DNA of 64,000 nt from a bacterium. GTDB taxonomy: Bacteria > Verrucomicrobiota > Lentisphaeria > Victivallales > GWF2-38-69. The stretch spans positions 4,904 to 68,903 of the forward strand of contig JAJXWI010000001.1 of NCBI GenBank assembly GCA_021781705.1. Reading direction: 5' to 3'. The translations under genes and the position numbers were made by a program. Below the pieces are notes generated by a model that worked only from the letters and a program-made list of their open reading frames with translations, was not told the origin of the DNA and did no database searches. Below are positions 8,374 through 62,980 of the stretch, piece after piece. The number at the start of each line of letters is the position of its first letter. Positions within the stretch are counted from its first letter, which is position 1.

Positions 8374-10272
8374 ATGAATGGACAAGAGATTACAGCATTG
8401 GAGAACAAACTCTGGGCGGCAGCTGACCAGCTCCGTGCCAATTCTAAACTAACTGCTACGGAATATTCATTCCCTGTTCTGGGACTTATCTTTCTCAGGC
8501 ACGCCTACAGCAGATTTGTCAGCGTAAAAGACAAAATAGAAAAGGAACTGCCTATCCACCCTCAGAAAGGAAGAAGAGCTCTGACTAAAGATGACTTTCA
8601 GAAGGAGAAAGCGATGTATCTTCCAGAGAAAGCACGCTGGGAATACCTGGCTACACTGCCAGAAGGAAAAGATATTGGAGCAGAACTGGATGATGCTATG
8701 AAGTCCATAGAGGCTGAATATGAGACGCTCCAAGGCGTACTGCCCAAGAACTATTCGCTATTTGAGAAAGACCTGATGTACCGATTGGTTCGTATATTCA
8801 ATGCCGAAGAGCTGAACATAGCAAAAGGTGATGTTTTCGGCAGAATATACGAGTATTTCCTGAACAACTTTGCCAAGTCTGGAGCACAGGAAGGCGGGGA
8901 GTTCTTTACTCCGCCAAGTTTGGTAAATACTATTGTTATAATCATTGAGCCGAATCACGGCATATTTCTAGACCCTGCATCCGGAAGTTTCGGAATGGCT
9001 GTTCAAACAGGGCACTTCCTGGAAGAAGAAGGACTAAACCCTTCCCAGAAAATTACATTCTACGCTCAGGAAAAGACAGATACAAATATCAAGCTCTCCA
9101 AGATGAATATGGCTGTTCACGGTCTCGACGCAAATATCCTGCAGGGAAACACTTTCTACGAAGACCAGCACGGCCTTGTTGGCAAGTGCGATTTTGTTAT
9201 GGCAAATCCTCCGTTCAATGTGGACGGCGTTGATAAGAGCAAAGACAGCGTAAAGAACGATTCAAGGCTGCCATTCGGGTTGCCGAACAATGACAATGCA
9301 AATTATCTCTGGATACAATATTTCTACTCCTATCTCAATCCAACGGGGCGTTCGGGCTTTGTTATGGCATCTTCCGCTTCCGATGCTGGCAGCAGCGAGA
9401 AACTAATCCGTGAGAAGCTCGTCAAGACTGGAGCCGTGGATGTAATGGTTTCCATAGGGACTAAGTTCTTCTATACCCGTTCGCTTCCCTGTACTCTCTG
9501 GTTCTTTGACAGGGCAAAAGAGAAAGACAAAGAGCGCAGGGACAAAACCCTTATGCTTGACCTGCGGGATGTTTACCGCAAAGTATCTTCCAATCTGCAC
9601 GATTTCACGCCTGAACATCATAAGAATATCAAATCCATTGTAGGGCTTTACAGAGGCAATAATGACTACTTCAAGAAAACCATAACAGAATACAAGAGCG
9701 AAGCCGAAAGCTCACTGGAAGAAGCCAGAACGCTATTTAAAACTATCACGGAAAAACAGCTCAAAGCCGAAAACCTGGCGCTCAAAGTTGATAAGCACAC
9801 CTTGCAAATTGCCGAACTCAAGAAGTCCAAACGGGAACTCAATAATGCACATAAGGAGCTTCCTGCTGAAATCAAAACCCTTCTTCAGCAGGAAGCGGTG
9901 AAGAAAGACAAGAGCCGCAAGGAACGTTTGCAGGAGTACAATAAAGATCTCGAGCTGTTAATGGCAGAGTTCAACGCCGCCGCTGACAAGTGCATATACT
10001 TTGACAAGGAACACCACTGGCTGACAAGCCGTTTCCCGAAAGCTGAATACAACGATGTCCCAGGCCTCTGCAAAGTAGTAAGTCAGAGTGAAATTGAAAG
10101 CAATGACTTCAGCTTGACTCCTGGGCGATATGTGGGCGTAGCGCCTCAGATTGATGACGGTTTCGACTACGAAGCGAGACTTAGGGAGATACATTCTGAA
10201 TTTGAGGGACTGAGCGCTGAAGCTACAACCTTGTCATCACGAATTATGGAAAATATTAAAGGATTATTATAG
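8374..10272 (+). CDS. hsdM: type I restriction-modification system, DNA methyltransferase subunit M
   Basis: HsdM N-terminal region (LWAAADQLRANSKL), SAM motif LDPASGSFG, catalytic NPPF (VMANPPFNV), and C-terminal NDFSLTPGRYVG. It carries an extra coiled-coil stretch at roughly residues 430-560. Confidence 0.9.
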   Translation: MNGQEITALENKLWAAADQLRANSKLTATEYSFPVLGLIFLRHAYSRFVSVKDKIEKELPIHPQKGRRALTKDDFQKEKAMYLPEKARWEYLATLPEGKDIGAELDDAMKSIEAEYETLQGVLPKNYSLFEKDLMYRLVRIFNAEELNIAKGDVFGRIYEYFLNNFAKSGAQEGGEFFTPPSLVNTIVIIIEPNHGIFLDPASGSFGMAVQTGHFLEEEGLNPSQKITFYAQEKTDTNIKLSKMNMAVHGLDANILQGNTFYEDQHGLVGKCDFVMANPPFNVDGVDKSKDSVKNDSRLPFGLPNNDNANYLWIQYFYSYLNPTGRSGFVMASSASDAGSSEKLIREKLVKTGAVDVMVSIGTKFFYTRSLPCTLWFFDRAKEKDKERRDKTLMLDLRDVYRKVSSNLHDFTPEHHKNIKSIVGLYRGNNDYFKKTITEYKSEAESSLEEARTLFKTITEKQLKAENLALKVDKHTLQIAELKKSKRELNNAHKELPAEIKTLLQQEAVKKDKSRKERLQEYNKDLELLMAEFNAAADKCIYFDKEHHWLTSRFPKAEYNDVPGLCKVVSQSEIESNDFSLTPGRYVGVAPQIDDGFDYEARLREIHSEFEGLSAEATTLSSRIMENIKGLL

Positions 10273-10468
10273 GTAGGGCGTGTCTCTCCGAGACCGCCGA
10301 AAAAGCGGACGCAAGGTAGGGGCATCTCTTCGCAGATGCCCGATTAATTGTGCGGACGCCTCGGAGGTGCGTCCCTACCCATCGAAAATAATATATGGGA
10401 ATGTGTGGTAGGGTCAGATCCCCGAGCTGACCGCTATTGACGGACGGTTACGGAGAACCGTCCCTACC
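10272..10468 (+). repeat. REP cluster, left copy (five GC-rich hairpins bounded by GTAGGG/CCCTAC)
   Basis: Hairpins seen: GTCTC-TCC-GAGAC, GGGCATCT-CTTCGC-AGATGCCC, GGACGC-CTCGGAGGT-GCGTCC, GGTCAG-ATCCCCGAG-CTGACC and GGACGGTT-ACGGAG-AACCGTCC. Several are preceded by GGTAGGG or followed by CCCTACC. Confidence 0.85.
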
Positions 10469-10494
10469 AAAAGTCATGAAGGGGAAATGAAATT

Positions 10495-10965
10495 ATGGAT
10501 AAAAATCTACCGAATCGAAAAATGCTACCCCACAGCGTGCCTTATTGGTTGACGGAAAGTCCCATTTATTTTTTTACCGTTTGCGCAAGTCCGAGGGGAG
10601 AAAATCAGTTATGCAAAAAAGATATATCCGAAAAGCTTTGGGAAAGCGCATATTTTTATATGAAGAATGGAGATTGGTGGATATACTGTTTTCTGCTGAT
10701 GCCGGATCATATTCATGCCTTGATTGGGCTTTCTATGAAAACAGGGCTTGCCGATTCTGTGGCATTATGGAAACGATATGCGGCCAGGAATTTAAAGATA
10801 AACTGGCAGCGGGATTTTTTTGATCATAGGCTTAGAAGAGAGGAGTCAATAATCAATAAAACTCAATACGTATTAAATAATCCAGTCAGGGCAGGATTGA
10901 CAGAAAGTTATGAACAGTGGCCGTATTATTGGGGATTTAATTCAGATGGAAGGAGTATAAGGTAG
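10495..10965 (+). CDS. REP-associated tyrosine transposase (RAYT; IS200/IS605 TnpA-like Y1 transposase)
   Basis: 156 aa with the HUH motif in LLMPDHIHALI and the catalytic Tyr motif YVLNNPVRAGL. It is flanked by REP clusters. Confidence 0.85.
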   Translation: MDKNLPNRKMLPHSVPYWLTESPIYFFTVCASPRGENQLCKKDISEKLWESAYFYMKNGDWWIYCFLLMPDHIHALIGLSMKTGLADSVALWKRYAARNLKINWQRDFFDHRLRREESIINKTQYVLNNPVRAGLTESYEQWPYYWGFNSDGRSIR

Positions 10966-11158
10966 GGCGGGTCTCTCCGAGACCGCCGAAAAAGCGGACG
11001 CAAGGTAGGGGCATCTCTCCGTAGATGTCAGATTGATTATGCGGACGCCTCGGAGATGCGTCCCTACCCATCGAAAATAATATATGGGAAGATGTGATAG
11101 GGTCAGATCTCCGAGCTGACCGCTCTTGACGGACGGTTGCGGAGAACCGTCCCTACCC
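10961..11158 (+). repeat. REP cluster, right copy (direct repeat of 10272-10468)
   Basis: It aligns colinearly with the left copy. By eye there are about 14 substitutions and 1 indel in ~198 nt. Confidence 0.85.
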
Positions 11159-11326
11159 AAAGAACAGGTATGAGAAAATATTAAAGGACTACGCTGATGA
11201 AGTTCAAGATTGTAAATTGTGTTGTTGTGCCATGCAAAAAATTATAATATTTTGTATGTTACAATCGGATAAATATAGAAATAGCACCCGTTGTAAAACT
11301 CAGGAACACTTAAACGAGCTGGGATT

Positions 11327-12442
11327 ATGAGTTGGAAGAGAGTAAAGGTTCATGATTGTATTGAATTCTTCAATGGGAAAGGGATAAAAACAGAATTACA
11401 TACTGGAGACAATCCAATTTATGGGGCCAATGGGATAATAGGTTCTACAAAAGAAAGTAACTATAGCAATGGAATTATAATTGGTCGAGTAGGTGCATAT
11501 TGTGGAGCTGTCCAGGTAGAAAAAGGTACATTTTGGGCAACTGATAACACGATAGTAGCTAAGGCAAAAAGAGATAATGACAATCAGTTTTGGTATTATC
11601 AGTTTTCAGACTTAAAATTGAATAAATATGCAGGTGGAGCAGCTCAGCCACTTGTTACTCAGTCAGTCTTAAAAGAGATAGATATAGACCTTCCGCCGCT
11701 TGAGACACAGAAGCGGATAGCTAAGATATTATCGGCGTATGATGACCTGATAGAAAATAACCTCAAGAGAATAAAACTTCTCGAAGAAGCCGCTCAGAAT
11801 ATCTACAAGGAATGGTTTGTGAATTTCCGCTTCCCTGGCTCAGAACATACCGAGTTCATCAACGGCCTCCCCAATGGCTGGGAGAGAAAGGCATATTCTA
11901 AAGTAGCTGAGTTTGTTAATGGATTTGCCTTCAAGCCAAGTCATCATTTCTATGACGGAATACCAATTATAAAAATTAAAGAATTAAAAAGCGGTATTGC
12001 AGAAGATACGCCAAGAAATTCAGGTGAGGATATTCCACTTAAATACCACTTCGATGATGGCAGCATCATCTTCAGTTGGTCTGCCGACATTGATGCATAT
12101 TGGTGGTCAAATGGCAAAGCCTTACTGAATCAACACTTATTTTTGGTATTGCCTAGTTATCCGAATGCCAACGAGTATTTCTATTTTGCATTAAAAAATT
12201 CAATGCAAGACTTTAGAAACAGAACAACAGGCGCAACAATGAAACACATCAAGAGAACTGAACTTGACAATGTTTTATGCGTTGTACCTGTAGAAGATAC
12301 GGTGAAAGAATTCTGTAAAGTAACTTCTCCAATACTAAGCCTTATAACAAACTTAAATCAACAGAACCAGAAACTCAAAGAGGCGCGGGATATTTTGCTG
12401 CCACGGTTGATGAATAGAACGATAGAGGTTGGTGGTTCGTAG
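11327..12442 (+). CDS. hsdS: type I restriction-modification system, specificity subunit S
   Basis: Two variable target-recognition halves are separated by the conserved helical spacer LPPLETQKRIAKILSAYDDLIENNLKRIKLLEE. A related C-terminal helix is QNQKLKEARDILLPRLMN. Confidence 0.85.
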   Translation: MSWKRVKVHDCIEFFNGKGIKTELHTGDNPIYGANGIIGSTKESNYSNGIIIGRVGAYCGAVQVEKGTFWATDNTIVAKAKRDNDNQFWYYQFSDLKLNKYAGGAAQPLVTQSVLKEIDIDLPPLETQKRIAKILSAYDDLIENNLKRIKLLEEAAQNIYKEWFVNFRFPGSEHTEFINGLPNGWERKAYSKVAEFVNGFAFKPSHHFYDGIPIIKIKELKSGIAEDTPRNSGEDIPLKYHFDDGSIIFSWSADIDAYWWSNGKALLNQHLFLVLPSYPNANEYFYFALKNSMQDFRNRTTGATMKHIKRTELDNVLCVVPVEDTVKEFCKVTSPILSLITNLNQQNQKLKEARDILLPRLMNRTIEVGGS

Positions 12443-12461
12443 TTGGTGGTTCGTGGTTGAC
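12427..12461 (+). repeat. heptad tandem repeat (GGTTGGT GGTTCGT AGTTGGT GGTTCGT GGTTGAC)
   Basis: Five consecutive 7-nt units read directly. They overlap the last hsdS codons (VGGS-stop) and supply the TTGACA of the downstream promoter candidate. Confidence 0.8.
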
Positions 12462-12496
12462 ATGGAGAGCGTTTTGCTGTATTATTTGTAATACAA
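12457..12496 (+). promoter_or_regulatory. candidate sigma70-type promoter and palindromic operator for relBE(-hsdR)
   Basis: TTGACA (12457-12462), a 17-nt spacer, then TATTAT (12480-12485). The palindrome TTGTAATACAA (12486-12496) follows, then an AGAGGAGG SD before the relB-like ATG at 12516. Confidence 0.45.
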
Positions 12497-12515
12497 CAAA
12501 AAGAGGAGGCGTGAA

Positions 12516-12746
12516 ATGAGCGTAATGACTTTAAGATTACCCGAAAAAATAGAGAAAGAGTTATCGGAACTCGTTAAGACAACAGGACATACAAAGAGCT
12601 ATTTCGTTAATGAGGCAATGAAGACATACCTGGAGGACAGGAAGGACTACATCAAAGCGGCGGCTATTCTGGAAAAGATTGAAGCTGGAGAGATGAAGAC
12701 AAGACCTCTGAAAGAGATTATGGCGAAGTATGACCTGGGAAATTGA
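12516..12746 (+). CDS. ribbon-helix-helix antitoxin (RelB/ParD/CopG-like)
   Basis: 76 aa. The N-terminal MTLRLPEKIEKELSELVKTTGHTKSYFVNEAMKTYL fits a beta-strand plus two-helix RHH pattern. It overlaps the toxin gene by 17 nt. Confidence 0.75.
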   Translation: MSVMTLRLPEKIEKELSELVKTTGHTKSYFVNEAMKTYLEDRKDYIKAAAILEKIEAGEMKTRPLKEIMAKYDLGN

Positions 12747-12996
12747 AGTATCGAAAGAAGCAGAGAGACTTCTTGATAAGCTGGCAAAGTCTGACAAGAA
12801 GACTCTAAACTTGATTTATAAGAAGTTGATGGTATTTGCTGAAAACCCGAGACAGTTTGGCAAAGCTCTCACAGGCGATAAGCAGGGAATATGGCGATAC
12901 AGAGTGGGAGATTATAGGATTCTATGCCAACTGAAAGACAAAAAGCTGATAATGCTTGTTCTGATAATAGACCACAGAAAGGATGTTTACAGATAG
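12730..12996 (+). CDS. type II toxin, RelE/ParE superfamily
   Basis: 88 aa. WRYRVGDYRILCQLKDKKLIMLVLIIDHRKDVYR is a typical RelE/StbE C-terminus. Confidence 0.8.
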   Translation: MTWEIEVSKEAERLLDKLAKSDKKTLNLIYKKLMVFAENPRQFGKALTGDKQGIWRYRVGDYRILCQLKDKKLIMLVLIIDHRKDVYR

Positions 12997-13002
12997 GGAA
13001 AT

Positions 13003-16000
13003 ATGAGCTCTGATTATTCGGAAGATAAGCTGATAGAGCAGACCTGTATAGAGCTATTTAAGGATAAGCTCAAATGGGATACGATAAATGTTTACGGCGG
13101 TGAAGAGCTTGGCGTTACTGGCACGCTCGGACGGAATTCTGAGGCAGAAGTTATACTCAAGGGGCGTTTCTACGATGCGATAAAGAAGCTAAATCCCGCC
13201 CTTCCCACTCAGGCTTACGATAAAGCGTATGAGGAAATCATCTCCGATAGTGCGACCAAAACACTGTCTGAGCTCAATCAGGAGAAGTACAACTTTCTGA
13301 GGGACGGGATAGGAATTACCTTCAAGAACAAGAAGGGAGAGATTATCAGGAACAGGAAGATAAAGGTCTTCGACTTTGAGAACCCATTGAATAATGATTT
13401 CCTGGCAGTCCAGCAGTTATGGATAGAAGGAAAATCCAAACGCAAAAAGAGGCCTGATATTGTGGGTTTTGTCAACGGGATACCGTTATTATTTATCGAA
13501 CTCAAATCACATCATCAAAAACTCAAGGTAGCTTATGAAAAGAACCTCTCCGACTACAAGGACACTATCCCGAAACTTTTCCACTGCAACGCATTTATCA
13601 TACTGAGCAACGGTATTGAGAGCAAAATAGGAGCCATCACAAGCAAGTATGAGCATTTCAACGATTGGAAGCGAATAGAAGAAAAAGAGGAAGGAATCGT
13701 AAGCCTTGATACAATTATTCTGGGGGTTTGCGAGAAGAGACGCATTCTTGACTTATTCGAGAACTTTATTCTGTACGATACGACGATAGGTTCTGTGATT
13801 AAGCTCATAGCCAGGAACCATCAGTTTATCGGAGTTAATAAGGCTATTAACCATCTGAAGAAACAGCAGTCGCTCTTGCAGGCAGAAAAGATAAGGCCTG
13901 CCGATGCACAGAAGCTGGGCGTATTCTGGCATACGCAGGGGTCTGGCAAGTCGTACTCAATGGTTTTCTTCTGCCAGAAAATTAATCGTAAAATGGGCGG
14001 AGCGTATACCTTTATCATAGTTACGGACAGAGTGGAGCTGGACAAGCAGATTTACGGGACATTCGCAGGAGTCGGAGCCGCAACAGGCGATAATTCCAAG
14101 GCAGATAGCGGAGCGGAGTTAAAAGAGCTTCTCAAAACAGGCGATAAGTATATCTTCACGCTTATTCATAAGTTCAACTTCACTGAAACCGTAACTGAGA
14201 GAAGCAATATCATTGTTATCTCCGATGAAGCGCACAGGACACAGAACGGCACGCTAGCTGTCAATATGAGAAAGGCTCTCCCCAATGCTTCATTTATAGG
14301 GTTTACAGGGACGCCGCTCTTCAAGGACGATGAACTCACCAGAAGGATATTCGGAAAATATGTATCTGTCTATGACTTCAAGAGGTCTGTCGAGGACGGT
14401 GCGACAGTGCCGCTCTATTATGAGAACAGAGGCGAAAAGCTAAAGCTGAAAAATCCCACAATAAACGACGAAATCAGAAACGCAATAGAGGAAGCCGACC
14501 TCGATGATGACCAGGAAGAGAAACTCAAAAGACTTTTCGCAAGAGATTATCCCATCCTTACGGCGGAAAAGAGATTGCGCTCAATCGCAACAGATGTAGT
14601 GAAGCATTTCAACGGGCGAGGCTACAGAGGAAAGGGAATGTTCGTAGCTCTGGACAAGGTGACCGCTGTCAGGATGTACAGCTACATTGACGAGGAATGG
14701 AAGAAATATCTCATTAAGCGAAAAGCTGAAATTGACAAAATGACCGACGAGCAGGAACAGCTTATTGAATACAAAAGGCTTCAATGGTCAGAAGAGACCG
14801 AAATCGCAGTTATCATAAGCCACGAACAGAATGAAATAAGCAAGTTTAAAGCCTGGGGTCTGGACATTGAAGAGCATCGGCTGAAAATGAATGAACGAGA
14901 TCTGGAGAAGGAGTTCAAGGACGAGAACCATCCTTTCAGGTTTGCCATAGTCTGTGCAATGTGGATTACAGGCTTTGACGTAAAGAGCCTTTCAACTATG
15001 TATATCGATAAGCCGCTCAAATCTCACACCCTGATGCAGACAATAGCCAGGGCAAATAGAGTTCACGAAGGAAAAAATAACGGCCTTATCGTGGATTATA
15101 TCGAAACTTATAAGGCTCTGCTCCAGGCCTTGGCAATCTACGCTATTGGCGGCAAAAAGGACGGCGGAGAGATTGAACAGCCCGTCAAGCCATTGGAAGA
15201 ACTCATAGAAGAACTCGAAGAGGCGCTTAACGCTACAAAATCCTTTTCGAAAGATGAACTTAACTTTGAAATTGAAGCCATTATTGAAGCTCAAGGACTG
15301 CGCAAATTAAAAGCAATTAAGGATGGAGTCGGAGCTGTTTGTACCAATGACGAGACCAGAAATAAATTCGGGATACTTGCCAGGGAAGTATTTAAGAAAT
15401 ACAAAGCCCTTATGCCTGAGGATGCTATCTATAAATTCCAGGCAGAAAGAGACGCTATCAATGCGATGTACTCCGTAATCAACCAGAATACTGAGGATGC
15501 AGACATTACAGCAATTGTCAAGCAGGTTCAGGATGTAGTAGATAAATCCATAGAGAGCCTTAATATTGAACTTCTACCTGTAGAAGGGCACGGCAACAGG
15601 TTTGACCTGAGCAGTCTTGATTTTGAAAAAATCAGGGGCGAGTTTGATAAACTTAAAGAGAAAGGACTGCAGAATATCGCCGTCCAGTCGCTCAAGGAGA
15701 AACTCGAAAAACAGCTTAAACGAATGATTGAAAAGAACCCATACCGCATAAACTTCTATGAACGGTATCAGGAAATCATAGAAGAATACAACAACGGCAA
15801 AGACTATAAGGCTGTCAAAGAGATATTCGACAAACTCATAGACGAGTTCAAGAAGATAGCAGAAGAGGAAAAACGAGGCATAAGGGAGAACCTTAATGAG
15901 GATGAGCTGGCTGTTTTCGATATGCTTGGCAAAAACAAGAAAATAAACGATAAAGAAAAAACCGAACTCAAGAATGCTGCCAGGAAACTATTAAAACGGC

Positions 16001-16209
16001 TCAAGAATAAGGAATTTAAAGTCGAATACTGGCCTGATAAAGTTCAAACAGCTGCGGCTGTCAGAACTACCATAAATGACTACCTGTTCCAATACCTCCC
16101 CCATCCCGTTTACGACGATGATGACAGAATCGCGAAAATAGAAATTCTCTATGATTTCTTCAAAGCCCGTTACTCGGACTTTGCCAGTGTAACGGCTATA
16201 AATATGTAG
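13003..16209 (+). CDS. hsdR: type I restriction-modification system, restriction (helicase-nuclease) subunit R
   Basis: 1068 aa with SF2 motif I HTQGSGKS, motif II ISDEAHRTQ (DEAH), motif VI QTIARANR, and a long helical C-terminal region. It starts 7 nt after the relE-like stop. Confidence 0.9.
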   Translation: MSSDYSEDKLIEQTCIELFKDKLKWDTINVYGGEELGVTGTLGRNSEAEVILKGRFYDAIKKLNPALPTQAYDKAYEEIISDSATKTLSELNQEKYNFLRDGIGITFKNKKGEIIRNRKIKVFDFENPLNNDFLAVQQLWIEGKSKRKKRPDIVGFVNGIPLLFIELKSHHQKLKVAYEKNLSDYKDTIPKLFHCNAFIILSNGIESKIGAITSKYEHFNDWKRIEEKEEGIVSLDTIILGVCEKRRILDLFENFILYDTTIGSVIKLIARNHQFIGVNKAINHLKKQQSLLQAEKIRPADAQKLGVFWHTQGSGKSYSMVFFCQKINRKMGGAYTFIIVTDRVELDKQIYGTFAGVGAATGDNSKADSGAELKELLKTGDKYIFTLIHKFNFTETVTERSNIIVISDEAHRTQNGTLAVNMRKALPNASFIGFTGTPLFKDDELTRRIFGKYVSVYDFKRSVEDGATVPLYYENRGEKLKLKNPTINDEIRNAIEEADLDDDQEEKLKRLFARDYPILTAEKRLRSIATDVVKHFNGRGYRGKGMFVALDKVTAVRMYSYIDEEWKKYLIKRKAEIDKMTDEQEQLIEYKRLQWSEETEIAVIISHEQNEISKFKAWGLDIEEHRLKMNERDLEKEFKDENHPFRFAIVCAMWITGFDVKSLSTMYIDKPLKSHTLMQTIARANRVHEGKNNGLIVDYIETYKALLQALAIYAIGGKKDGGEIEQPVKPLEELIEELEEALNATKSFSKDELNFEIEAIIEAQGLRKLKAIKDGVGAVCTNDETRNKFGILAREVFKKYKALMPEDAIYKFQAERDAINAMYSVINQNTEDADITAIVKQVQDVVDKSIESLNIELLPVEGHGNRFDLSSLDFEKIRGEFDKLKEKGLQNIAVQSLKEKLEKQLKRMIEKNPYRINFYERYQEIIEEYNNGKDYKAVKEIFDKLIDEFKKIAEEEKRGIRENLNEDELAVFDMLGKNKKINDKEKTELKNAARKLLKRLKNKEFKVEYWPDKVQTAAAVRTTINDYLFQYLPHPVYDDDDRIAKIEILYDFFKARYSDFASVTAINM

Positions 16210-27484: not shown

Positions 27485-27571
<87 letters not shown>

Positions 27572-28073: not shown

Positions 28074-28099
28074 TTGCCTTGACCGATATTGCTCAAAAT

Positions 28100-28575
28100 T
28101 TACTCAAAACCCGTTTCGTTCTTAAATAAGAGATTTGCAAACAAACCTACGCAAAACATATATACGAGGGCAAAGTAAATAACAAACATAGCTTTTCTCT
28201 CAGTCCTAAAAGATCTCCTACGCAACCGATAATAATATGAATAACAGCCTGCCTGCAGTCGTAAGACTACAGAACACGCTGACCACTTTTACACCATTTG
28301 TAGCAGAATTCCATCCACGATATTCGTTGAGAAATTTTACCATCCAGATAGAAATTCCCTGTTCTATTCCGATGTAAGCAAAAATTAAAGAACAAACCCA
28401 GCTGATAGAAATCCAACTCATCCCTTCAGGAACAAACAAGGCTACGAGGCAGCGCTTGCGTACAATAAGAAAAAATTCTCCAATAATCAGATATTTTGCA
28501 AATGAGTTTTTTTCAGTCACTCATTTTTTCAGAAAAAAAGAAGCCACCCCTTTTGAGGCCAACAACATACTTCAT
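28100..28575 (-). pseudogene. remnant of an MFS sugar transporter (FucP/GluP-like), frameshifted and truncated
   Basis: An SD plus ATG at 28575 gives only a 20-aa ORF. The next frame (28218..28520) encodes FAYIGIEQGISIWMVKFL...TTAGRLLFILL, resembling the TM7-8 region of FucP-type MFS proteins. A third frame continues RKAMFVIYFALVYMFCVGLF to a stop at 28100. Confidence 0.45.
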
Positions 28576-28589
28576 AGAACTCCTAATAT

Positions 28590-29108
28590 TTAACTAGGCC
28601 ACGGGGAATTTGGAACCGTAACATAAAACTTGTGCGTCGGGGATGCTTCGGATGGAGGGGTGTAGTGGGTCCATAAATCGTCGTATCTGATTGCACCAGG
28701 GCATTCGGGGCTGTTTATTTGTAAAATGGGGCCAAGCTCTACCATTTTCAGTATTGTATTTTTATATATAACTGAAAGCTGATATCCATAATCCTGCCCT
28801 GGCTGATTAATGAAATTAAATTGCATCTCCCTTGCTAGGTATGGGCCGCTCATCCCATTCAATTTGTACGTGCATTCCGACAGTGGGGTGACGGGACTTG
28901 AGCAGGTCGGGCGTGTGGCTATAACCTCCTCAATCAAGTGTAGGCGTGCGTTTCTTTGAATGAGATTTACTCTGAAAGTTATGCCTGATGAAACTATCCT
29001 ATCCCTTTGAGAAAGCTCAAGACGTTGAATCTCCGCATGTAACCTATTAGTCATCATGAAACCCAGAGCGATAATGGTGACAAAGCGCATGGTTGCGTTT
29101 TTATACAT
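28590..29108 (-). CDS. secreted hypothetical protein
   Basis: 172 aa with a signal peptide (MRFVTIIALGFMMTNRLHA). No family recognised. Confidence 0.55.
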   Translation of the reverse strand: MYKNATMRFVTIIALGFMMTNRLHAEIQRLELSQRDRIVSSGITFRVNLIQRNARLHLIEEVIATRPTCSSPVTPLSECTYKLNGMSGPYLAREMQFNFINQPGQDYGYQLSVIYKNTILKMVELGPILQINSPECPGAIRYDDLWTHYTPPSEASPTHKFYVTVPNSPWPS

Positions 29109-29192
29109 ATTTTTTGTACTCCTCAGTCTAATTTTATATTAGTAATTGATTAAATGTTGAATCAGATATTTTAAAGTCGATATAAATATTTT

Positions 29193-29232
29193 CTAGCAGT
29201 TTGTCGGGATTTGCCCTAAAACTGCCGGAAAT
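29193..29232. repeat. palindromic repeat, second family (single unit)
   Basis: CTAGCAGTTTGTCGGGATTTGCCCTAAAACTGCCGG has a GCAGTTT/AAACTGC stem. Compare 18766-18803. Confidence 0.6.
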
Positions 29233-29347
29233 AGAAAAATATACATTACTGAATTCAATGTACCATTTTCAAGAATTCTGGAGATACTTTATAGATAGGC
29301 ATAGTTGATCTCTGATTAACGGCTACTAAAAAAATGGAGGTAGGGTT

Positions 29348-29584
29348 ATGAGTATTGACTCAGCAAAAGCGTATGTAGAAAGAATGAAGAACGACGAGGA
29401 ATTCAGGAAGAAAGTCCTTGCCTACAAAGATGCCAAAAAGAGAATGGAACTGGTAAAAGCAGAAGGTTATGACTTTGCTGAAAATGACATTAAAGTTGTA
29501 ACTGCCGTTATGAATGGTGCGGAGCTAGGAGCAGTAACGGGAGGCAAGGGACGTGGTCCATGCGGGAACACGTTCATACATTAA
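29348..29584 (+). CDS. Nif11-like leader peptide RiPP precursor
   Basis: 78 aa. The leader MSIDSAKAYVERMKNDEEFRKKVLAYKDAKKRMELVKAEGYDFAENDIK...ELGAVTGG matches the Nif11-type leader pattern and ends in a double-glycine motif. The predicted 12-aa core is KGRGPCGNTFIH. A GGAGG SD lies upstream. Confidence 0.7.
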   Translation: MSIDSAKAYVERMKNDEEFRKKVLAYKDAKKRMELVKAEGYDFAENDIKVVTAVMNGAELGAVTGGKGRGPCGNTFIH

Positions 29585-29926
29585 TTTGTGCGAATTACAA
29601 AACACACATGTGAGTACGATAAAAATAAAACCAGAAGATCAATGATTGGATAAAATAAGAGCTTACGTTGACCAGAGGCCGAAATAGGCTCTTTTACATA
29701 AGCTTAGTTATGTTTATATAATATAGTTTTATAAATTTGAGTTTCATATTTAGAATGAAAGCTTTTATTTTATTATTGTGCAATTCTTAAAGGAATTATC
29801 ACTCTGAACAAATTGGCAAATGCCAGCGAAAACAACACCAATAACATCAAGGAAGCAAGAAAATACTTCCTTTTCTTTAATATTTCCGACAGATAAAACT
29901 TCAGCAACTTTAAATCAAAAATATAC

Positions 29927-32014: not shown

Positions 32015-32277
32015 AAAAACAATTCAAATTTAGAATTTATGATTGACAATTTTATTCATTCTCTGTCTGCCGTTAAATCCTTATCGAATTTAAAATACCA
32101 ACAGACAGTGTAAAATCGCAATGCACATGCATAAATAAGAGATTCTAACTACAACAAAATACAATAAAAGCTTAACCCAACAGATTGCGTGAGGAAAAAT
32201 ATAGCATCACAATGAAGAAATCAATAGCATTGTCAAAATTTGCCGATAGGAAATCAGAGACAATTGCAAACTCTTTT

Positions 32278-32368
32278 CCGGTTCCGACAGAGCGGAACCC
32301 TCCAGTTTCGAAAATGGAGAGATTTACTCCGTCAAAACCGCTTGTATTTGAATTTTTCAAAAGGCCCA
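32278..32368. repeat. REP-like element (GGTTCCG hairpin plus TCGAAAATGGAG..GTCAAAACCGCTTGTATTTGA module)
   Basis: CCGGTTCCGACAGAGCGGAACCCTCCAG...CCGTCAAAACCGCTTGTATTTGAATTTTTCAAAAGGCCC. It is nearly the same as 55571-55680 apart from that copy's 22-nt loop insert. Confidence 0.8.
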
Positions 32369-37374: not shown

Positions 37375-37776
37375 ATGGAAGAAGCAAAGCATATCTCAAC
37401 CGGCAAAAAGGGAGAAAAAATAGCTTGCCACCTGTTGAAAAACAAAGGGTTTAAAATTCTCTTCCGTAATTACAAATCAGACAATCGCACAGGAGAAGTA
37501 GATATTGTTGCTAGAGACGGAGCAGTATTGTGCTTCATTGAAGTCAAAACCCGCTACGCCTCTGCCTTTGTTGAAAAAACAACAGATGATGCATGGGTAA
37601 GCCACAACCAGACGGAAAGAATTAAGAATGCTGCAAAAGACTACCTATTCAAAATCGGCACAGATAAAATCAAGTACAGGTTTGACCTTGTAGAAATAAC
37701 TCTAGGGAAATTCGGAATTAAAAAAATTCATCACTGGGAAAGAAATTTCGGCCTTCCCGATTTAGATAGATACTAA
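37375..37776 (+). CDS. yraN: YraN family (UPF0102) endonuclease-like protein
   Basis: GEKIACHLLKNKGFKIL..RNYK...GEVDIVARDGAVLCFIEVKTR is the typical YraN core. Confidence 0.85.
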   Translation: MEEAKHISTGKKGEKIACHLLKNKGFKILFRNYKSDNRTGEVDIVARDGAVLCFIEVKTRYASAFVEKTTDDAWVSHNQTERIKNAAKDYLFKIGTDKIKYRFDLVEITLGKFGIKKIHHWERNFGLPDLDRY

Positions 37777-38045
37777 CCTAACTTTCTATAGAATTTACAA
37801 ATTTGCATCCAGAATATTTTTGCCAATACTCTAATTTCAGAGAACCTGATCCTTGGCCCTTAAAAAACGTCATAACATCCTGTAAATAAGAGAACAAAAC
37901 AAAAAGTCAAAAGTTACAAAAAAGGAGTAGTTGCATTTCTTCATGCACGTCAGATTTATCCCGGCGAACAAATGAGCACGGAGCTACTTATACATGGTTC
38001 CGACTGTAAAGGTTCAGCAAAATATGTTACCGGACTCAAAACGGC

Positions 38046-38257
38046 TGATTTCTTTTTTTAGTATTTTGCGGTTCCGACAGAGCGGAACCCTCTACTTAAA
38101 TCATAACTTCACGCATCACGTGGAGGGACGAGCTTTTACCATGCGTTTTAGCAAGGTTGTCTCATCCGCATCTTTTACGGTTCCAGGTGGAGGGACGCAC
38201 TACGTTGCGTCCACTTGGCGTAAATATTGATCTACATAGTTTACTGAACACTTACCT
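38046..38257 (+). repeat. composite REP cluster, left arm of a long-range inverted repeat
   Basis: It contains GGTTCCG-ACAGAG-CGGAACC, GGAGGGACGAGCTTTTACCATGCGTTTTAGCAAGG, GGAGGGACGCA-CTACGT-TGCGTCC and ...TTTACTGAACACTTAC. The reverse complement of 47656-47888 aligns along its whole length. Confidence 0.85.
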
Positions 38258-38480
38258 ATCTTGTACTAATTTTAAAAAAACTGGATATTAAAAACATAAC
38301 TTGCCTTATGTTATTTTATCCTGTCAAGAACAATTCGGGTTTTCTTTTAACTTTTAATTCATAACTGAAGATCATATAGTTACCAATCCGTGGGATCTTG
38401 CTGCTCATGCTCTGACGGACAACCCTTCCTATTATACCACGCTTTTGCTGAGTCAATGCTCATTGATCTACCTACTGAAT

Positions 38481-38508
38481 TGTTTGTGGTTTATGGTTTG
38501 TGGGTCAT
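38481..38508 (+). repeat. heptad repeat variant (TGTTTGT GGTTTAT GGTTTGT GGGTCAT)
   Basis: Four 7-nt units read directly in otherwise non-coding DNA. Confidence 0.55.
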
Positions 38509-38615
38509 AGCCTGACTTCCTAGAAAATTTTGGTTCTTTCTTAAAACGAGTGGATAATGGTGCATATTTCCCAATAATGATTTAAACTTTATTTCATCGT
38601 TCAAAAAAATCAATG

Positions 38616-38930
38616 TCATAAAAATGGGATACTAAAGAAAATGATGAAAGAGCTGGTTGAAAAGGCGATTGGAATAAGCAAACCATGGTTTATTCCTAGC
38701 TCATCTTTTTCTTCAAAAATTCGTTTAAAAAGATCTTTTGGTCCGTCAATGCGTGTACCTTTGATGTTTTTAGGGTCTGTATTTTGACCTAAAAGTTGGG
38801 ATATACTGGTTCCTGCGCACACAATGATAAATACGACATGCTCTAACTTTTGAAATTTAGTCAAATTAGATTGATCGGTTTTAAATTCTTGCAAATACTT
38901 ATATGCTTGTTTTAATGAAAAGAGCTGCAA
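38616..38930 (-). CDS. hypothetical protein (weak call, TTG start)
   Basis: 104-codon ORF with only a TTG start and an in-frame stop 28 codons upstream. No motif recognised. Confidence 0.3.
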   Translation of the reverse strand: MQLFSLKQAYKYLQEFKTDQSNLTKFQKLEHVVFIIVCAGTSISQLLGQNTDPKNIKGTRIDGPKDLFKRIFEEKDELGINHGLLIPIAFSTSSFIIFFSIPFL

Positions 38931-39037
38931 ATTTGAAGTACTCTCCGAATCGGATGTAATCTCTGCATATTTTGGTAATTCCTCATCATTCGTAGGGATA
39001 TTTAATTCATATCATAAACAAGCCCCGCTGCAATTTT

Positions 39038-40390
39038 TCAGGTTCGATCTTCTTCATCAACCAGTGTTGGGTTTGATATTTCCGGCAGGATATTTTTGGT
39101 TTGAGCTTCATTTAAGGCTTCAACACTTTGCAGTCTCCTTTGGATTGCACGAGTTCTTTTACCCATTACGTCATCCAACTGGTTTAGGCCTGTTTGAATA
39201 TTATTTTGAGCTTTCTCCATCATGCCGCCAAAGTTTTCAAACTCCTTTTTGACTGCGCCCAACACCTGCCATACTTCACTGCTTCTTTTTTGAATAGCCA
39301 GTGTTTTGAAACCCATTTGAAGACTGTTTAGTATTGCCGCTAATGTTGTTGGGCCTGTTACAATTATTTTATAATTTCTCTGGAGGTCTTCTAACAATGC
39401 TGCTTTTCTGACAACCTCGGCATATATGCCTTCAAACGGCAAAAACATAATTCCAAAATCAGTTGTATTAGGCGGATCGATGTACTTGTCGCCTATATCC
39501 TTGGCCATTTTTTTAATAGTAGCTTCCATATTTTTTTGAGCGGTACTTATCTTGCTTTGATCACCATCGTCATACGCTTCTTGTAACTTTTCATAAACAT
39601 CCTTTGGAAACTTTGCATCAATAGGCAGCCATACACTTGTACCAAAATCATCCCGACCCGGCAATTTAATAGCAAATTCAACCAAATCAGAACTGTTGGA
39701 TTTTGTTTTTACATTCGCTTCGTACTGGTCAGGAGCTAGAATTTGTTCCAACAACATTGATAGCTGAATCTCTCCAATCCCTCCCCGCATTTTAACATTG
39801 CTCAGTACTTTTTTAAGCCCGCCAACGTCAGACGCCAGGTTCTTCATTTCGCCAAGCCCTTCTTGAACCGCTTGAAGCTGTTTACCAACTGTTTCAAATG
39901 ATTGACTTAATCTTTCGTTTAATGTTTTTTGCAGTTTCTCATCAACTGTTTTTCGCATTTCATCAAGCTGTTTGGTATTGTCTTCTCGTATCGACTTTAA
40001 TTGCTTCTCAACAGAATCTTTCACTTCTTTCAGATTGTCGGCAGTCTGTTTATTAAACTCAATTTGCTGGATGCGCATTTCTTCATGCTTGCCTTTCAGA
40101 AGATCATTGAGTTCTTTGACGTTTTTTGAAAATTGAGTACTAAAGGATTCTAAAGTTTTTGTCAATTCATCCCTGTTAGTTTTTGCAATTCCATTGGTTT
40201 CTGTTCGATTCCTTTGGAATTCATCCTTAACTGACTTTTCTGTTCGGTCTATAACAGCGCTAAACCTTATCATTGAATCTTCGATCTCTCTTAATTGAGA
40301 TTTGATTTCAATTTTTGGCTTTTTAAATAGTCCAATCCCAATGCCAATTAGTGAAAGAATTATCAGTATTATCAACAGTGTTTCAATCAT
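39038..40390 (-). CDS. rmuC: DNA recombination protein RmuC
   Basis: An N-terminal TM segment and a long coiled coil, then the RmuC core GEIQLSMLLEQ...WLPIDAKFP...MFLPFEGIYAE...IIVTGPTTLAAILNSL. Confidence 0.85.
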   Translation of the reverse strand: MIETLLIILIILSLIGIGIGLFKKPKIEIKSQLREIEDSMIRFSAVIDRTEKSVKDEFQRNRTETNGIAKTNRDELTKTLESFSTQFSKNVKELNDLLKGKHEEMRIQQIEFNKQTADNLKEVKDSVEKQLKSIREDNTKQLDEMRKTVDEKLQKTLNERLSQSFETVGKQLQAVQEGLGEMKNLASDVGGLKKVLSNVKMRGGIGEIQLSMLLEQILAPDQYEANVKTKSNSSDLVEFAIKLPGRDDFGTSVWLPIDAKFPKDVYEKLQEAYDDGDQSKISTAQKNMEATIKKMAKDIGDKYIDPPNTTDFGIMFLPFEGIYAEVVRKAALLEDLQRNYKIIVTGPTTLAAILNSLQMGFKTLAIQKRSSEVWQVLGAVKKEFENFGGMMEKAQNNIQTGLNQLDDVMGKRTRAIQRRLQSVEALNEAQTKNILPEISNPTLVDEEDRT

Positions 40391-42172: not shown

Positions 42173-42186
42173 TCCTCTCTTAATAT

Positions 42187-42280
42187 ACAAGGGGTGCTTT
42201 TACACTCAAAACTTGAGAGGAGTAAGGCTGAGAAAGAAACCCTTTAAACCTGATCCGGTTAGTACCGGCGGAGGGATTGT
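42187..42280 (+). promoter_or_regulatory. TPP (THI-box) riboswitch aptamer
   Basis: ACAA-GGGGTGC...GGCTGAGAAAGAAACCCTTTAAACCTGATCCGGTTAGTACCGGCGGAGGGA-TTGT. It contains the conserved GGGGUGC, CUGAGA and ACCCUUUnAACCUGAUCnGG..CCnGCGnAGGGA elements, closed by an ACAA/TTGT P1 stem. Confidence 0.85.
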
Positions 42281-42360
42281 GAAGCCGTCGGCTGCTGCTA
42301 TTTAGAATGTTTTATACATTCCGATTTGGTTTCCACTTTCTCTAACTAAAAAAACTAAGA

Positions 42361-43011
42361 GTGTGGAAAGTGAATACGATTATTGAGTTCTCGAAGAACA
42401 ACTGGCTAGAGATAGCAGGTGTAGTATTTTCTGTAATTTATCTTTACTTCTCGATAAACAGAAAACTCTGGCTATGGGCCGTCGGAATAATATCCAGCGC
42501 TATATACGTGGTAGTCTTTTTCAGAGCCTCCCTTTATGCTGACATGATACAAAATATTTACTATGTAATAATCAGCATTTATGGGCTTATAACATGGATC
42601 AAGGACAGAGACAACCTTGATAAAAGAACTTATGAAGTCGAAGTCTATAAAACTCCTTTGAAAAAAATAGCCCCGATTATTCTTGCGTGGCTATCAATAC
42701 ACGCCACAATTTACTGTTTCACAAAATTCATGCCTGAAATTCTTGGGATAAGCTCGGCAAGTATTCCATTAATAGACAGCTGTCTTACAAGTACGGCATT
42801 TATCGCTACATGGATGCTTGCAAAAAAATATATAGAACAGTGGGTTTTATGGATATTTGTGGATTTCGCTTATATTGTAGTATATGCTTACAGAGAACTT
42901 TACCTGACCTGTTTCCTGTTTTTAATATATACATCTATGGCCATAGTAGGTTATGTAAAATGGAAAGAACATCTTTTAACAGATAATAAAAATAAAATCA
43001 AGCAGTTATGA
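42361..43011 (+). CDS. pnuT: PnuC-family transporter, predicted thiamine transporter (PnuT) from riboswitch context
   Basis: 216 aa with ~7 TM segments. The N-terminal WLEIAGVVFSVIYLY and C-terminal QWVLWIFVDFAYIVVY are typical of PnuC-family proteins. It lies directly downstream of the TPP riboswitch. GTG start. Confidence 0.7.
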   Translation: MWKVNTIIEFSKNNWLEIAGVVFSVIYLYFSINRKLWLWAVGIISSAIYVVVFFRASLYADMIQNIYYVIISIYGLITWIKDRDNLDKRTYEVEVYKTPLKKIAPIILAWLSIHATIYCFTKFMPEILGISSASIPLIDSCLTSTAFIATWMLAKKYIEQWVLWIFVDFAYIVVYAYRELYLTCFLFLIYTSMAIVGYVKWKEHLLTDNKNKIKQL

Positions 43012-47655: not shown

Positions 47656-47888
47656 GTAAGTGTTCAGTAAACTAAGCATGTCAATGTTTACGCCAAGCGG
47701 ACGCAACGGAGTGCGTCCCTCCATATGGAACCGTAAAAGATGCGAACGATACAACCTTGCTAAAGGGCATGGTAAAAGCTCGTCCCTCCACGTGTCGCGT
47801 GAAATTATGATTTAAAGCGGAGGGTTCCGCTTTTACCATACGTTTTGGCAAGGCTGTCGGAACCGCAAAATACTAAAAAAGAAATCAG
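47656..47888 (-). repeat. composite REP cluster, right arm of the long-range inverted repeat
   Basis: Its reverse complement aligns with 38046-38257. By eye identity is roughly 85-90%, with one 22-nt insertion (CCTTGCCAAAACGTATGGTAAA) in the GGTTCCG hairpin loop. Confidence 0.85.
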
Positions 47889-52827: not shown

Positions 52828-52888
52828 TGTTATTGGCTTCTGTACTTATGGGTTGCTACTATAACTGTCAGCTGTTAACTATTCCTAA

Positions 52889-54691
52889 TCAATTCTGATT
52901 TTGGTCTTTTCTGATTTCAAAATCAAGCTTCCATCTGTTTTCGCTTCTCTTGTCTATGCACCACACCTGAAGCGTACCTGTTTCGGTGTACTCTACATGA
53001 AGATTGACAGGGACCAGGCTTCCTGATGGAATATCACCATAAGGCTCAAGGTTTACAGCAAGAGATGGCAGTTCGTCGATATCTGGCGAATTTTCTATAT
53101 TATCTATAACCGAGCCTGTTTTTCCATTTTTTTTGAACTTAGAGGAATAAAAATGGAAATCTGTAGTTTCCCCGACAATCAAACCCAGTCCTGAATAGTC
53201 TATATCAAGAGACGTTCCCTCTTCCGCACCGACAGGCAGAACACAAAGTCCCTGCATAGGAGGAAGAAAACCCGGAACTGCCGGCATAGAGGTTTCTACA
53301 CCAAGATAATATGAACGGGAACTGCCGGCTTTAATTCTGATTCCGCTGCCTTCTTTTACAAATGCATAACAGCTTGCGCCCAGAGCAACTGCCAGATCAG
53401 GATTGGTACCGGTAAGAATTTTTACGTCTCTCGTTCCCGACGCCCAACTCTTTATCACTTTTACAATTCGATCTTTTATGACATCGGCCTTTGTAACGCC
53501 CCCATTGAAAAGTATGCAATTAGGCAGATCCTTTTCAGATTTACAGTTACTGTTCAGAAATGCAGCAAGGTGCTTAGTGATTGCAGGGTCTGATTCATAT
53601 TTCAGCCCGAATGTACGAAGCCCCGCTCTCCTTGAATCTGTCGGCTTATCTTCCAGCGCGCATTCTGGAAAAAATCCATCTATCAATATTTCATAAACTT
53701 CATTTCTTGAGAGTTCCGTACTTATAGTATTTGCTATCATGCTGCTGCCTCTGCCAAGCACGGTCAGCTTTTCACTTTTCGTTCCTGAATCTGACATCAA
53801 AGACTCTTTAGCCCTTCTGCACCCATAAGTAAGCCCGGTTATCTGATAAGCATCGAGAACCATATTGTTTTCCTTTTTAAGCTTACCTGCTATGGAATAC
53901 GCAAGCGTCAGGTCCATGTTATCACCGCCAAGAAGGATATGATTGCCAACAGCTACTCTTTCAAGCGTAAGATTTCCTTCCGCATCGGAAACTTTTATTA
54001 AACTAAAGTCAGTAGTTCCTCCACCGATATCGCAAACCAGAATAACATCTCCGGCAGAAACTTTTTTTCTCCAATCTTCGCCATGTTCGTTAAGCCACGA
54101 GTAGAAAGCTGCCTGAGGTTCTTCGAGCAATATTATTTCAAGTCCAGCAAGCCCGGCGGCTTTTACTGTCAACTCCCTTGCAACAGCATCAAATGAAGCT
54201 GGAACCGTTATGACAACAGTCTGATTTTCCAGTATATCCTCCGGTTTTTCAGCAGCCATCTGACTATTCCAGGCATTCTTCATGTGTTCAATTATTGTTG
54301 CTGTAGCGTCAAGCGGAGATAGCTGTTTTTTCGGATTATTCCTGTTCCATGGCAGAATAGCCGACATTCTGTCGACATTATCCGCACAAAGCCAGGATTT
54401 AACGGAGGCAACAACTTTCGTCGGAACCTTGGGCGACATTTTTCTCGCGAGTTCGCCAACAGCCAATTCCTGTTTTTCTTTCCACGGCAAGGCAAGACTG
54501 CCTTCAGGAATATCATTTTCATCAGGGATGTACACAAACGATGGAAGAATAACCTCCTCCTTCAGTTCGCCGGGATCTGAAAGTTGTGGAATTTTAAAAA
54601 GTATCGGGACTGAGGATTCAGCGGTTTTATCAATATAACAAACAACGCAATTCGTAGTTCCCAAATCTATCCCAACCAAATAACGAGACAT
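52889..54691 (-). CDS. atypical Hsp70-fold ATPase (600 aa)
   Basis: VGIDLGTTNCVV, VCDIGGGTTDFS, LLGGDNMD and ILFNGGVTK. The C-terminal beta-rich domain ends WKLDFEIR. No helical lid. Confidence 0.8.
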   Translation of the reverse strand: MSRYLVGIDLGTTNCVVCYIDKTAESSVPILFKIPQLSDPGELKEEVILPSFVYIPDENDIPEGSLALPWKEKQELAVGELARKMSPKVPTKVVASVKSWLCADNVDRMSAILPWNRNNPKKQLSPLDATATIIEHMKNAWNSQMAAEKPEDILENQTVVITVPASFDAVARELTVKAAGLAGLEIILLEEPQAAFYSWLNEHGEDWRKKVSAGDVILVCDIGGGTTDFSLIKVSDAEGNLTLERVAVGNHILLGGDNMDLTLAYSIAGKLKKENNMVLDAYQITGLTYGCRRAKESLMSDSGTKSEKLTVLGRGSSMIANTISTELSRNEVYEILIDGFFPECALEDKPTDSRRAGLRTFGLKYESDPAITKHLAAFLNSNCKSEKDLPNCILFNGGVTKADVIKDRIVKVIKSWASGTRDVKILTGTNPDLAVALGASCYAFVKEGSGIRIKAGSSRSYYLGVETSMPAVPGFLPPMQGLCVLPVGAEEGTSLDIDYSGLGLIVGETTDFHFYSSKFKKNGKTGSVIDNIENSPDIDELPSLAVNLEPYGDIPSGSLVPVNLHVEYTETGTLQVWCIDKRSENRWKLDFEIRKDQNQN

Positions 54692-54739
54692 TTTAAGTAA
54701 CTCCTTTTCTAATGAAAAAATACTTCCAGGCGCTGAAAA

Positions 54740-55570: not shown

Positions 55571-55680
55571 TCGGTTCCGACAACCTTGCTAAAACGCATG
55601 GTAAAAGCGGAACCCTCCAGAATCGAAAATGGAGGATTTTGCTCCGTCAAAACCGCTTGTATTTGAGTTTTTCAAGAGGC
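55571..55680. repeat. REP-like element (GGTTCCG hairpin with 22-nt loop insert, plus GTCAAAACCGCTTGTATTTGA module)
   Basis: CGGTTCCGACAACCTTGCTAAAACGCATGGTAAAAGCGGAACCCTCCAG...CCGTCAAAACCGCTTGTATTTGAGTTTTTCAAGAGGCTC. Compare 32278-32368. Confidence 0.8.
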
Positions 55681-59505: not shown

Positions 59506-59567
59506 AAAATATTGATATAGAAATATTCTTTACATATAGAGCGTTAAACAAACTAAGGAGGTAGAAG

Positions 59568-59984: not shown

Positions 59985-59991
59985 GGATAGT

Positions 59992-60030: not shown

Positions 60031-60070
60031 AAAATCACAAATCACAAATAAGCCCTATGTCGGAGGAAAT

Positions 60071-62977: not shown

Positions 62978-62980
62978 AAT

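Follow-up and report, generated by a model that had tools for sequence, protein, structure and literature searches.

The window, the whole 64-kb stretch of DNA analyzed here, stems from an uncultured bacterium of the Lentisphaerota. It contains a small gene that an earlier note, made from the sequence alone, had taken for a genuine but orphan precursor of a RiPP with a Nif11-type leader. Such a gene in a housekeeping context raises the question of whether it truly belongs to the precursor family, which enzyme and exporter would act on its product, and whether the product is still made and processed.

A Nif11-leader precursor gene in the window

Inspection of the ORF list and of the sequence gave the following features.

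29348..29584, + strand: Nif11-leader RiPP precursor gene, ATG start, 78 aa
29348-29545, + strand: leader, codons 1 to 66, ending in GG
29546-29581, + strand: core KGRGPCGNTFIH, 12 aa, following the GG
29582-29584, + strand: stop codon of the precursor gene
29336..29340, + strand: Shine-Dalgarno sequence GGAGG, 7 nt 5' of the ATG, read from the sequence

The 78-aa ORF and its good Shine-Dalgarno sequence were exactly as previously reported. The deduced protein consists of the leader MSIDSAKAYVERMKNDEEFRKKVLAYKDAKKRMELVKAEGYDFAENDIKVVTAVMNGAELGAVTGG followed by the core KGRGPCGNTFIH. A search with the TIGR03798 model (leader_Nif11, Nif11-like leader RiPP precursor), which the earlier note had proposed as a check of its leader assignment, confirmed the Nif11 type: the score was 58.6 bits (E = 5.2e-16; curated cutoff, 32.3), and the match covered precursor residues 1 to 66 and model positions 1 to 68 of 68. 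The Pfam Nif11 model (PF07862) scored 48 bits against a cutoff of 23.8. When a leader profile was compared with all window ORFs of at least 25 aa, the ORF at 29348-29584 was the sole match.

The leader end and the 12-aa core with one Cys and one Thr, both claimed before, can be read directly in the sequence. The GG occupies residues 65 and 66, and the junction (...VMNGAELGAVTGG followed by K) represents a double-glycine motif with hydrophobic residues at -4 (V), -7 (L), and -12 (M). The Cys is located at core position 6, and the Thr is Thr9 of the core (Thr75 of the precursor). The acidic stretch ahead of the GG is weakened, reading NGAELGAVTGG versus DDxELxxxxGG in the family. The identical, intact precursor protein is present on 9 contigs from several samples, including the metagenome-assembled genome (MAG) GCA_027457625.1. 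By its sequence, the ORF truly belongs to the TIGR03798 family, and its product is a modified-peptide precursor of the Nif11 type. The family is well known and the ORF an unexceptional member; standard annotation models already recognize the gene, which reveals no new kind of system.

Leaders and cores of related precursors

The leaders of 12 close homologs are 58 to 79% identical to that of the window (BLASTP) and nearly invariant, whereas the cores cannot be aligned. In an alignment of 11 homologs the GG is invariant, and all 11 of these close homologs matched TIGR03798. Scanning of metagenomes with the patterns MSI[ED]SAKA and VK[AVS]EG[FY]DF revealed 80 further loci. The leader profile retrieved 134 precursor ORFs from all loci collected, many of which carry two to six copies.

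The 81 distinct cores of the family range from 7 to 63 aa (median, 17), and 14 of them are no longer than 12 aa. Cys occurs in 65 of the 81, one Cys being the joint most common count, and 16 of 81 are free of Cys; not all members can thus be thioether substrates. A 12-aa core with one Cys is therefore ordinary for the family. The core size given in the earlier note stands, while the shortness that it had remarked on is not unusual. A C-G-x-T motif was found in several cores and is only a weak hint. The core of the homolog P0003 begins with a sequence (AGRGREGMT...) similar to KGRGPCGNT of the window, with a gap of ~28 nt in the DNA alignment. The corresponding reading, a truncated core in the window, was not adopted because a length of 12 aa falls inside the range seen in the family and hypervariable cores cannot be aligned reliably.

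Conserved leader-only Nif11 proteins were also encountered (L078, L082, L086, and L088, 61 to 80 aa; L080, L084, L087, and L098, 66 to 110 aa). These proteins start with MSIESAKAF, as in ...ARILKYEGFDFTDEELDSLK..., lack the GG motif and the core, and may represent a non-RiPP branch of the family.

The recurrence of leader-only proteins (L078, L082, L086, L088, and L098) is a point in favor of regarding the window ORF as a small non-RiPP Nif11-domain protein or as a chance ORF without expression. This explanation is extremely unlikely, since the window ORF possesses both GG and core, exceeds the cutoff of the RiPP-specific TIGR03798 model by a wide margin, and shares its cassette architecture with paralogs that have hypervariable cores.

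Genomic neighborhood of the precursor gene

The earlier note had reported no LanM, radical SAM, cyclodehydratase, or PCAT gene in the vicinity of the precursor. Pfam scans of ~50 ORFs detected no LanM, radical SAM, YcaO, or PCAT gene in the 64-kb window. The window and further contigs of the organism were searched by tblastn for homologs of the radical SAM enzyme, ABC exporter/PCAT, HlyD, substrate-binding protein, and extracytoplasmic function (ECF) sigma factor. The sole match was a gene for an MsbA-like ABC protein, adjacent to lpxD and skp; it carries no C39 domain and was rejected. Neither a peptide maturase nor a peptidase-ABC exporter is encoded within ~10 kb past the right end or ~7 kb past the left end of the window. 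With the window and both flanks free of maturase and export genes, the precursor is locally an orphan over ~81 kb, which bears out the earlier claim. A 20-kb stretch of the contig that carries a second remnant of the family (see below) likewise contains no radical SAM, PCAT, HlyD, or ECF sigma gene, and no partner genes were found across the ~100 kb of the organism's DNA examined.

Pfam scans of the large and nearby ORFs of the window assigned them to housekeeping, restriction-modification, Hsp70-like, signaling, and otherwise unrelated functions. The genes include those for RecJ, RNase III, a PHO4 transporter, a CBS protein, EF-G, an esterase, YebC, RuvC, a type I restriction-modification system, HypF, Hsp70-like proteins, a GH64 glucanase, pilus ATPases, and a partner-switching/two-component cluster. 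The adjacent EF-G has its best named relatives (72 to 74% identity) exclusively in Lentisphaerota, Lentisphaeria, or Victivallales. The divergent neighbor of the precursor gene is as follows.

28590-29108, - strand: gene for a secreted 172-aa protein, no Pfam match

A functional link between this protein and the precursor was considered and rejected; the 172-aa protein was found in no other organism and is not encoded next to any other precursor. Of the neighbors named earlier, the 172-aa protein and EF-G were recovered, whereas the MFS pseudogene found no Pfam or local blastx match. The segment in question (28100-28520, - strand), between the CBS gene and the 172-aa gene, contains broken ORFs of membrane-protein-like sequence.

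Several other features of the window were recorded. A TPP riboswitch (42180-42294, + strand; 65.9 bits, above the gathering score) is located directly upstream of a gene of the PnuC/NMN transporter family (42361-43011, + strand), which probably encodes a thiamine-regulated transporter. An operon at 50068-55351 (- strand) encodes two divergent Hsp70/MreB-like proteins (919 aa with a DUF3731 "DnaK-related" C terminus, and 600 aa) and a DUF2760 protein. A signaling cluster (58894-63955, + strand, and L100 10397-12652) comprises response regulators, two STAS proteins, an anti-sigma-type kinase, a SpoIIE phosphatase, and histidine kinases; it is followed, just past the window end, by a KaiB homolog. 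The type I restriction-modification locus (8374-16209) encloses, between hsdM and hsdS, an ORF (10495-10965, + strand) with a weak match to Y1 (IS200/RAYT-like) transposases in the precomputed annotation of this contig (L102 17464-17907).

The partner system of the leader subfamily

Neighbor clustering at the related loci revealed a recurrent gene set in 26 loci. It consists of an ECF sigma factor, a 124-aa protein, one or more precursors, an enzyme of ~465 aa, a periplasmic-binding-like protein, a HlyD-like protein, and two ABC proteins of ~730 aa and ~920 aa; an ECF sigma/anti-sigma pair often stands beside such canonical clusters. The ~465-aa enzyme was identified as TIGR04064, "nif11-like peptide radical SAM maturase," with 590 to 700 bits (NCBIfam cutoff, 518.7). 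The next-best NCBIfam models for these enzymes were PapB (~265 bits), QhpD (227 to 254), and SCIFF (~225 to 232), all below their cutoffs. The export set corresponds to TIGR03794 (HlyD-like), TIGR03796 (C39-peptidase ABC exporter, 1155 bits), and TIGR03797 (second ABC subunit, 1000 bits). The same cluster was found in an NCBI genome.

Ten distinct related loci have 3 kb or more of sequence on each side, and in 6 of them the radical SAM gene lies 71 to 218 nt from the precursor; a precursor beside a TIGR04064 enzyme was also found in L099. A search for the radical SAM family yielded 2546 clusters at E <= 1e-60. One member, P0050, was considered as the organism's own enzyme and discarded, as it belongs to another genome (GCA_927405585.1). 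The leader profile built from the close homologs of the window gene retrieves the radical SAM-adjacent precursors with E values of ~5e-29 to ~1e-17, and the window leader falls in the same MSIESAKAF/Y-ERMK-DE-F subfamily. No LanM was detected among the large neighbors of 72 distinct related loci; 928-aa neighbors are M16-peptidase-like, and the other large neighbors are unrelated. Because the recurrent clusters at related loci carry this enzyme and exporter and no LanM, the leader subfamily is expected to work with a radical SAM/SPASM maturase of the TIGR04064 type and with NHLP-type PCAT export, not with a prochlorosin-type LanM. These usual partners are missing from all examined DNA of the organism.

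The association agrees with published family descriptions. TIGR03798 was described together with the TIGR03794, TIGR03796, and TIGR03797 exporters, and some members were noted in species for which no maturase had been identified (Haft, Basu and Mitchell 2010, PMC2887384), and TIGR04064 was described as the presumed sole maturase of such peptides (Haft 2011, PMC3023750). For TIGR04064 chemistry, the searchable literature yielded the bioinformatic descriptions by Haft and no experimental reaction; no paper was found to mention the assembly accession.

Some clusters of the radical SAM type deviate from the canonical set. In L030 (2233-5019), L053 (2358-5168), L042, and L052, an M16 (pitrilysin/PqqF-like) peptidase of 928 to 936 aa adjoins the maturase in place of the PCAT set, which suggests an alternative route of leader removal. 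In L012 (409-4716) and L026 (4344-5852), B12-binding radical SAM proteins occur with precursors, alone or in addition to TIGR04064, and hint at further tailoring such as C-methylation.

The neighborhood data bear on two other explanations of the window gene. In the first, which follows the prochlorosin-type framing of the earlier note, a distant LanM would dehydrate core Thr9 (Thr75) and join it to the core Cys. Prochlorosins do use Nif11 leaders and their genes are dispersed (established knowledge; noted in PMC2887384), and the window core offers one Thr and one Cys, a weak criterion. Nevertheless, no LanM was detected in the window or among the neighbors of the 72 loci, whose recurrent enzyme belongs to the radical SAM proteins. 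A lanthipeptide is therefore very unlikely; from the earlier framing, the Nif11 leader and the GG are retained and the LanM partner is replaced by TIGR04064 and NHLP export.

In the second explanation, the product would be an unmodified double-glycine peptide that needs only a C39-peptidase ABC exporter and serves, as a linear 12-mer or a Cys disulfide dimer, in signaling or as a bacteriocin. The leader end conforms to the double-glycine recognition pattern, the Cys-less cores of the family would suit such a product, and NHLP exporters serve several precursor classes (PMC2887384). However, a 66-aa Nif11 leader goes far beyond the length needed for export only, the subfamily is tightly tied to the radical SAM maturase, and a PCAT was not found in the DNA examined either. 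This explanation is unlikely.

Conserved flanks of the precursor cassette

The precursor gene was compared with the paralogous cassettes L010, L104, L105, and L018, which stand in unrelated genomic contexts. Three elements flank the gene in addition to the Shine-Dalgarno sequence, whose region (AGGAGGTAGAG) is kept in the paralogous cassettes.

29259..29287, + strand: candidate ECF-type promoter TGTACC-N17-AGATAC, beginning at -89 from the ATG
29657..29693, + strand: terminator-like hairpin with a 9-bp outer stem AAGAGCUUA / UAGGCUCUU, then UUACAUA (RNA fold of 29585-29700)
29648..29790, + strand: conserved noncoding module 3' of the precursor, GGATAAAATAAGAGC, hairpin, then ACATAAGCTT..TTATGTTT...

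The 90 nt upstream of the ATG are 73 to 83% identical between the window and L010, L104, and L105, versus only 61% for L018; the identity of this block is above the expectation from saturated synonymous sites. In the cassettes the block carries TGTA(A/C)C-N17-AGATAC at -89, and the -35-like box of the window differs by one base from that of the paralogs (TGTACC versus TGTAAC). In canonical clusters with an adjacent ECF sigma factor, a motif TGTAAY-N16-CGTAYT precedes the precursor. A sigma-70 scan of the + strand upstream of the precursor ORF detected no promoter-like site. The shared upstream box, together with the similar motif in ECF-adjacent clusters, makes an ECF-type promoter 5' of the precursor a reasonable inference, no more.

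The downstream module (~110 to 140 nt) is 77 to 90% identical to its counterparts in L104, L105, L010, and L018 (blastn and alignment). The hairpin is kept in all four with a varying stem sequence; in the window, its U-run lies partly within the stem. No Rfam family matched the flanks of the intact precursor gene.

The similarity of leader and flanks across unrelated positions and genomes, with the core replaced, could be accommodated by a broader and doubtful proposal. Precursor genes of the Lentisphaerota lineage may be modular cassettes that are gained, lost, and gutted at variable islets; they would form a recombination-driven diversity system for radical SAM-modified peptides, with one hidden maturase/export locus serving in trans.

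Variable islet, decayed paralogs, and selection

Comparison with related genomes placed the precursor gene in a region of variable content.

28074..29926, no strand: variable islet of 1.85 kb between the CBS-domain gene and EF-G
27485-27571: tRNA-Leu beside the CBS-domain gene at the islet edge

The islet contains a gene fragment, the 172-aa secreted protein gene, and the precursor. In the syntenic relative L107, the CBS gene is 84% identical to that of the window at the nucleotide level, tRNA-Leu 95%, and EF-G 81%; its CBS/EF-G interval is occupied by a nucleoside 2-deoxyribosyltransferase gene, and neither the leader nor the 172-aa protein has left a trace there. In the relative L106, SecA abuts EF-G. 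The precursor is thus missing at the equivalent position in both syntenic related species.

A decayed paralog was found elsewhere in the window.

38380..38463, - strand: decayed paralog, 27-aa ORF MSIDSAKAWYNRKGCPSEHEQQDPTDW, leader codons 1 to 8 kept, remainder of the leader lost

The kept part is an exact 24-nt match to codons 1 to 8 of the intact gene, for which 0 chance matches are expected. The upstream AGGTAGA box and a downstream GGATAAAATA element are kept as well, and the flanks match L018, L010, L104, and L105. Rfam searches of 37770-39040 gave only weak, sub-threshold chance matches. A second decayed paralog, P0013, comprises leader residues 13 to 43 only; it lies in the same MAG on a different contig, flanked by mutL and a GGDEF gene. 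The closest match in a reference genome, L013 from "Ca. Magnetocorallium," is truncated before the GG.

An intergenic repeat of ~210 nt was observed at 38059-38269 and 47656-47888 in opposite orientation (82 to 84% identical), with shorter pieces at 55579-55683, 61025-61065, and 32274-32302; one copy abuts the decayed precursor cassette. Within it are further GGAGGGACG repeats and the pair GCGGTTCCGACAG / AGCGGAACC in inverted arrangement. No Rfam family matched the repeat, which may be REP- or MITE-like. The Y1-like ORF in the restriction-modification locus could be related to this repeat family.

Substitution analysis of the leader against its paralogs gave dN/dS values of 0.04 to 0.24 at dS of at least 0.6, with dS about 1 or more in every comparison that involves the window gene. 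These values show that the leader has been under long-term purifying selection relative to the paralogs. Single-nucleotide polymorphisms within the population were also considered as a selection test; the assemblies are 99.6 to 99.97% identical, too similar for the test to be informative over 237 nt.

Contig L018 (889 nt) was recovered from a sample in which this organism is present as well (L103). It joins 281 nt with 96.8% identity to the organism's second contig to an intact cassette, P0003, with a core of 32 aa. Because this flank derives from a very close relative and P0003 is intact, other intact copies still exist in the population.

These observations bear on the view that the window gene is a relic left stranded: the lineage would be losing this precursor family and the gene would be its last intact copy, with its maturase/export locus gone and its peptide, if made, unprocessed, unexported, and functionless. 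The two decayed paralogs, the truncated reference-genome relative, the weakened acidic stretch, and the variable islet with the precursor missing from syntenic relatives are consistent with such a relic, as is the lack of partner genes in the ~100 kb examined. On the other hand, the ORF, the Shine-Dalgarno sequence, the GG motif, and the hydrophobic residues at -4, -7, and -12 are intact, and the HMM match is strong and full length. Moreover, a very close relative has another intact cassette, so that the family is not simply dying out in the population, and the examined DNA is a small part of the genome. Taken together, a relic is a serious alternative, if on balance somewhat unlikely. Of the word "genuine" in the earlier note, family membership is upheld by the TIGR03798 score, while the islet and the two decayed paralogs place current function in doubt.

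A model for processing in trans

The preferred reading is that the precursor is still processed in trans by a maturase and an exporter encoded elsewhere in the genome, to which we assign a probability of roughly 0.5. Since the maturation and export machinery is not within ~81 kb, the precursor would depend on trans-acting genes elsewhere in the genome. The locus would form a self-contained cassette of promoter, Shine-Dalgarno sequence, 66-aa Nif11 leader, 12-aa core, and terminator. The precursor would be transcribed, possibly from the ECF-type promoter, and a radical SAM enzyme encoded elsewhere would bind the leader. The single Cys would permit at most one cross-link; the likeliest is a thioether with a side chain in its vicinity, e.g., that of core Asn8 or Thr9. 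A PCAT would then cut after Gly66 and export the 12-residue product.

The role of Cys as the cross-link donor in KGRGPCGNTFIH is a conjecture by analogy. The thioether formers PapB, QhpD, and SCIFF are presumably the closest characterized relatives of the TIGR04064 enzyme; the chemistry of TIGR04064 itself was not found in the searchable literature, and the proposed cross-link therefore rests on analogy.

The locus adds a Lentisphaerota example, from an uncultured bacterium, to the Nif11-leader RiPP family. With an uncharacterized radical SAM maturase of the TIGR04064 type as the likely partner, in place of a lanthipeptide synthetase, the enzyme to be sought or coexpressed changes. The intact, gutted, and truncated copies, together with presence and absence in close relatives, give a small, clean picture of the turnover of dispersed cassettes.

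Comparison with known systems

Class II double-glycine bacteriocins have a GG leader of ~15 to 30 aa and an adjacent PCAT and immunity gene, whereas the window precursor has a 66-aa Nif11 leader and no PCAT nearby. The thioether-forming radical SAM/SPASM systems of the ranthipeptide, SCIFF, and QhpD types (PapB, CteB, QhpD) resemble it in their Cys-containing core substrates; their leaders differ from the Nif11 leader.

The prochlorosins (ProcA/ProcM) of marine cyanobacteria share with the window precursor a Nif11-type leader, GG cleavage, and a conserved leader with hypervariable cores. Prochlorosin precursor genes are scattered far from a single maturase. In contrast to that system, no LanM accompanies the leader subfamily of the window in the examined loci, and the host is an anaerobe-type member of the Lentisphaerota, not a cyanobacterium.

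The TIGR04064/NHLP clusters (PMC3023750) differ in having the radical SAM, PCAT, HlyD, and ECF sigma genes that the window locus lacks within ~81 kb. They carry the same leader subfamily, and the window core has a Cys, as do 80% of the family cores. Compared with the TIGR03798 N11P precursors (PMC2887384), the window copy is solitary, belongs to the Lentisphaerota, and stands in a housekeeping context, with a weaker acidic stretch and a core at the short end of the range. It agrees with them in its leader of ~66 aa, the ELxxVxGG-type leader end, the short variable core, and the occurrence of paralogous copies.
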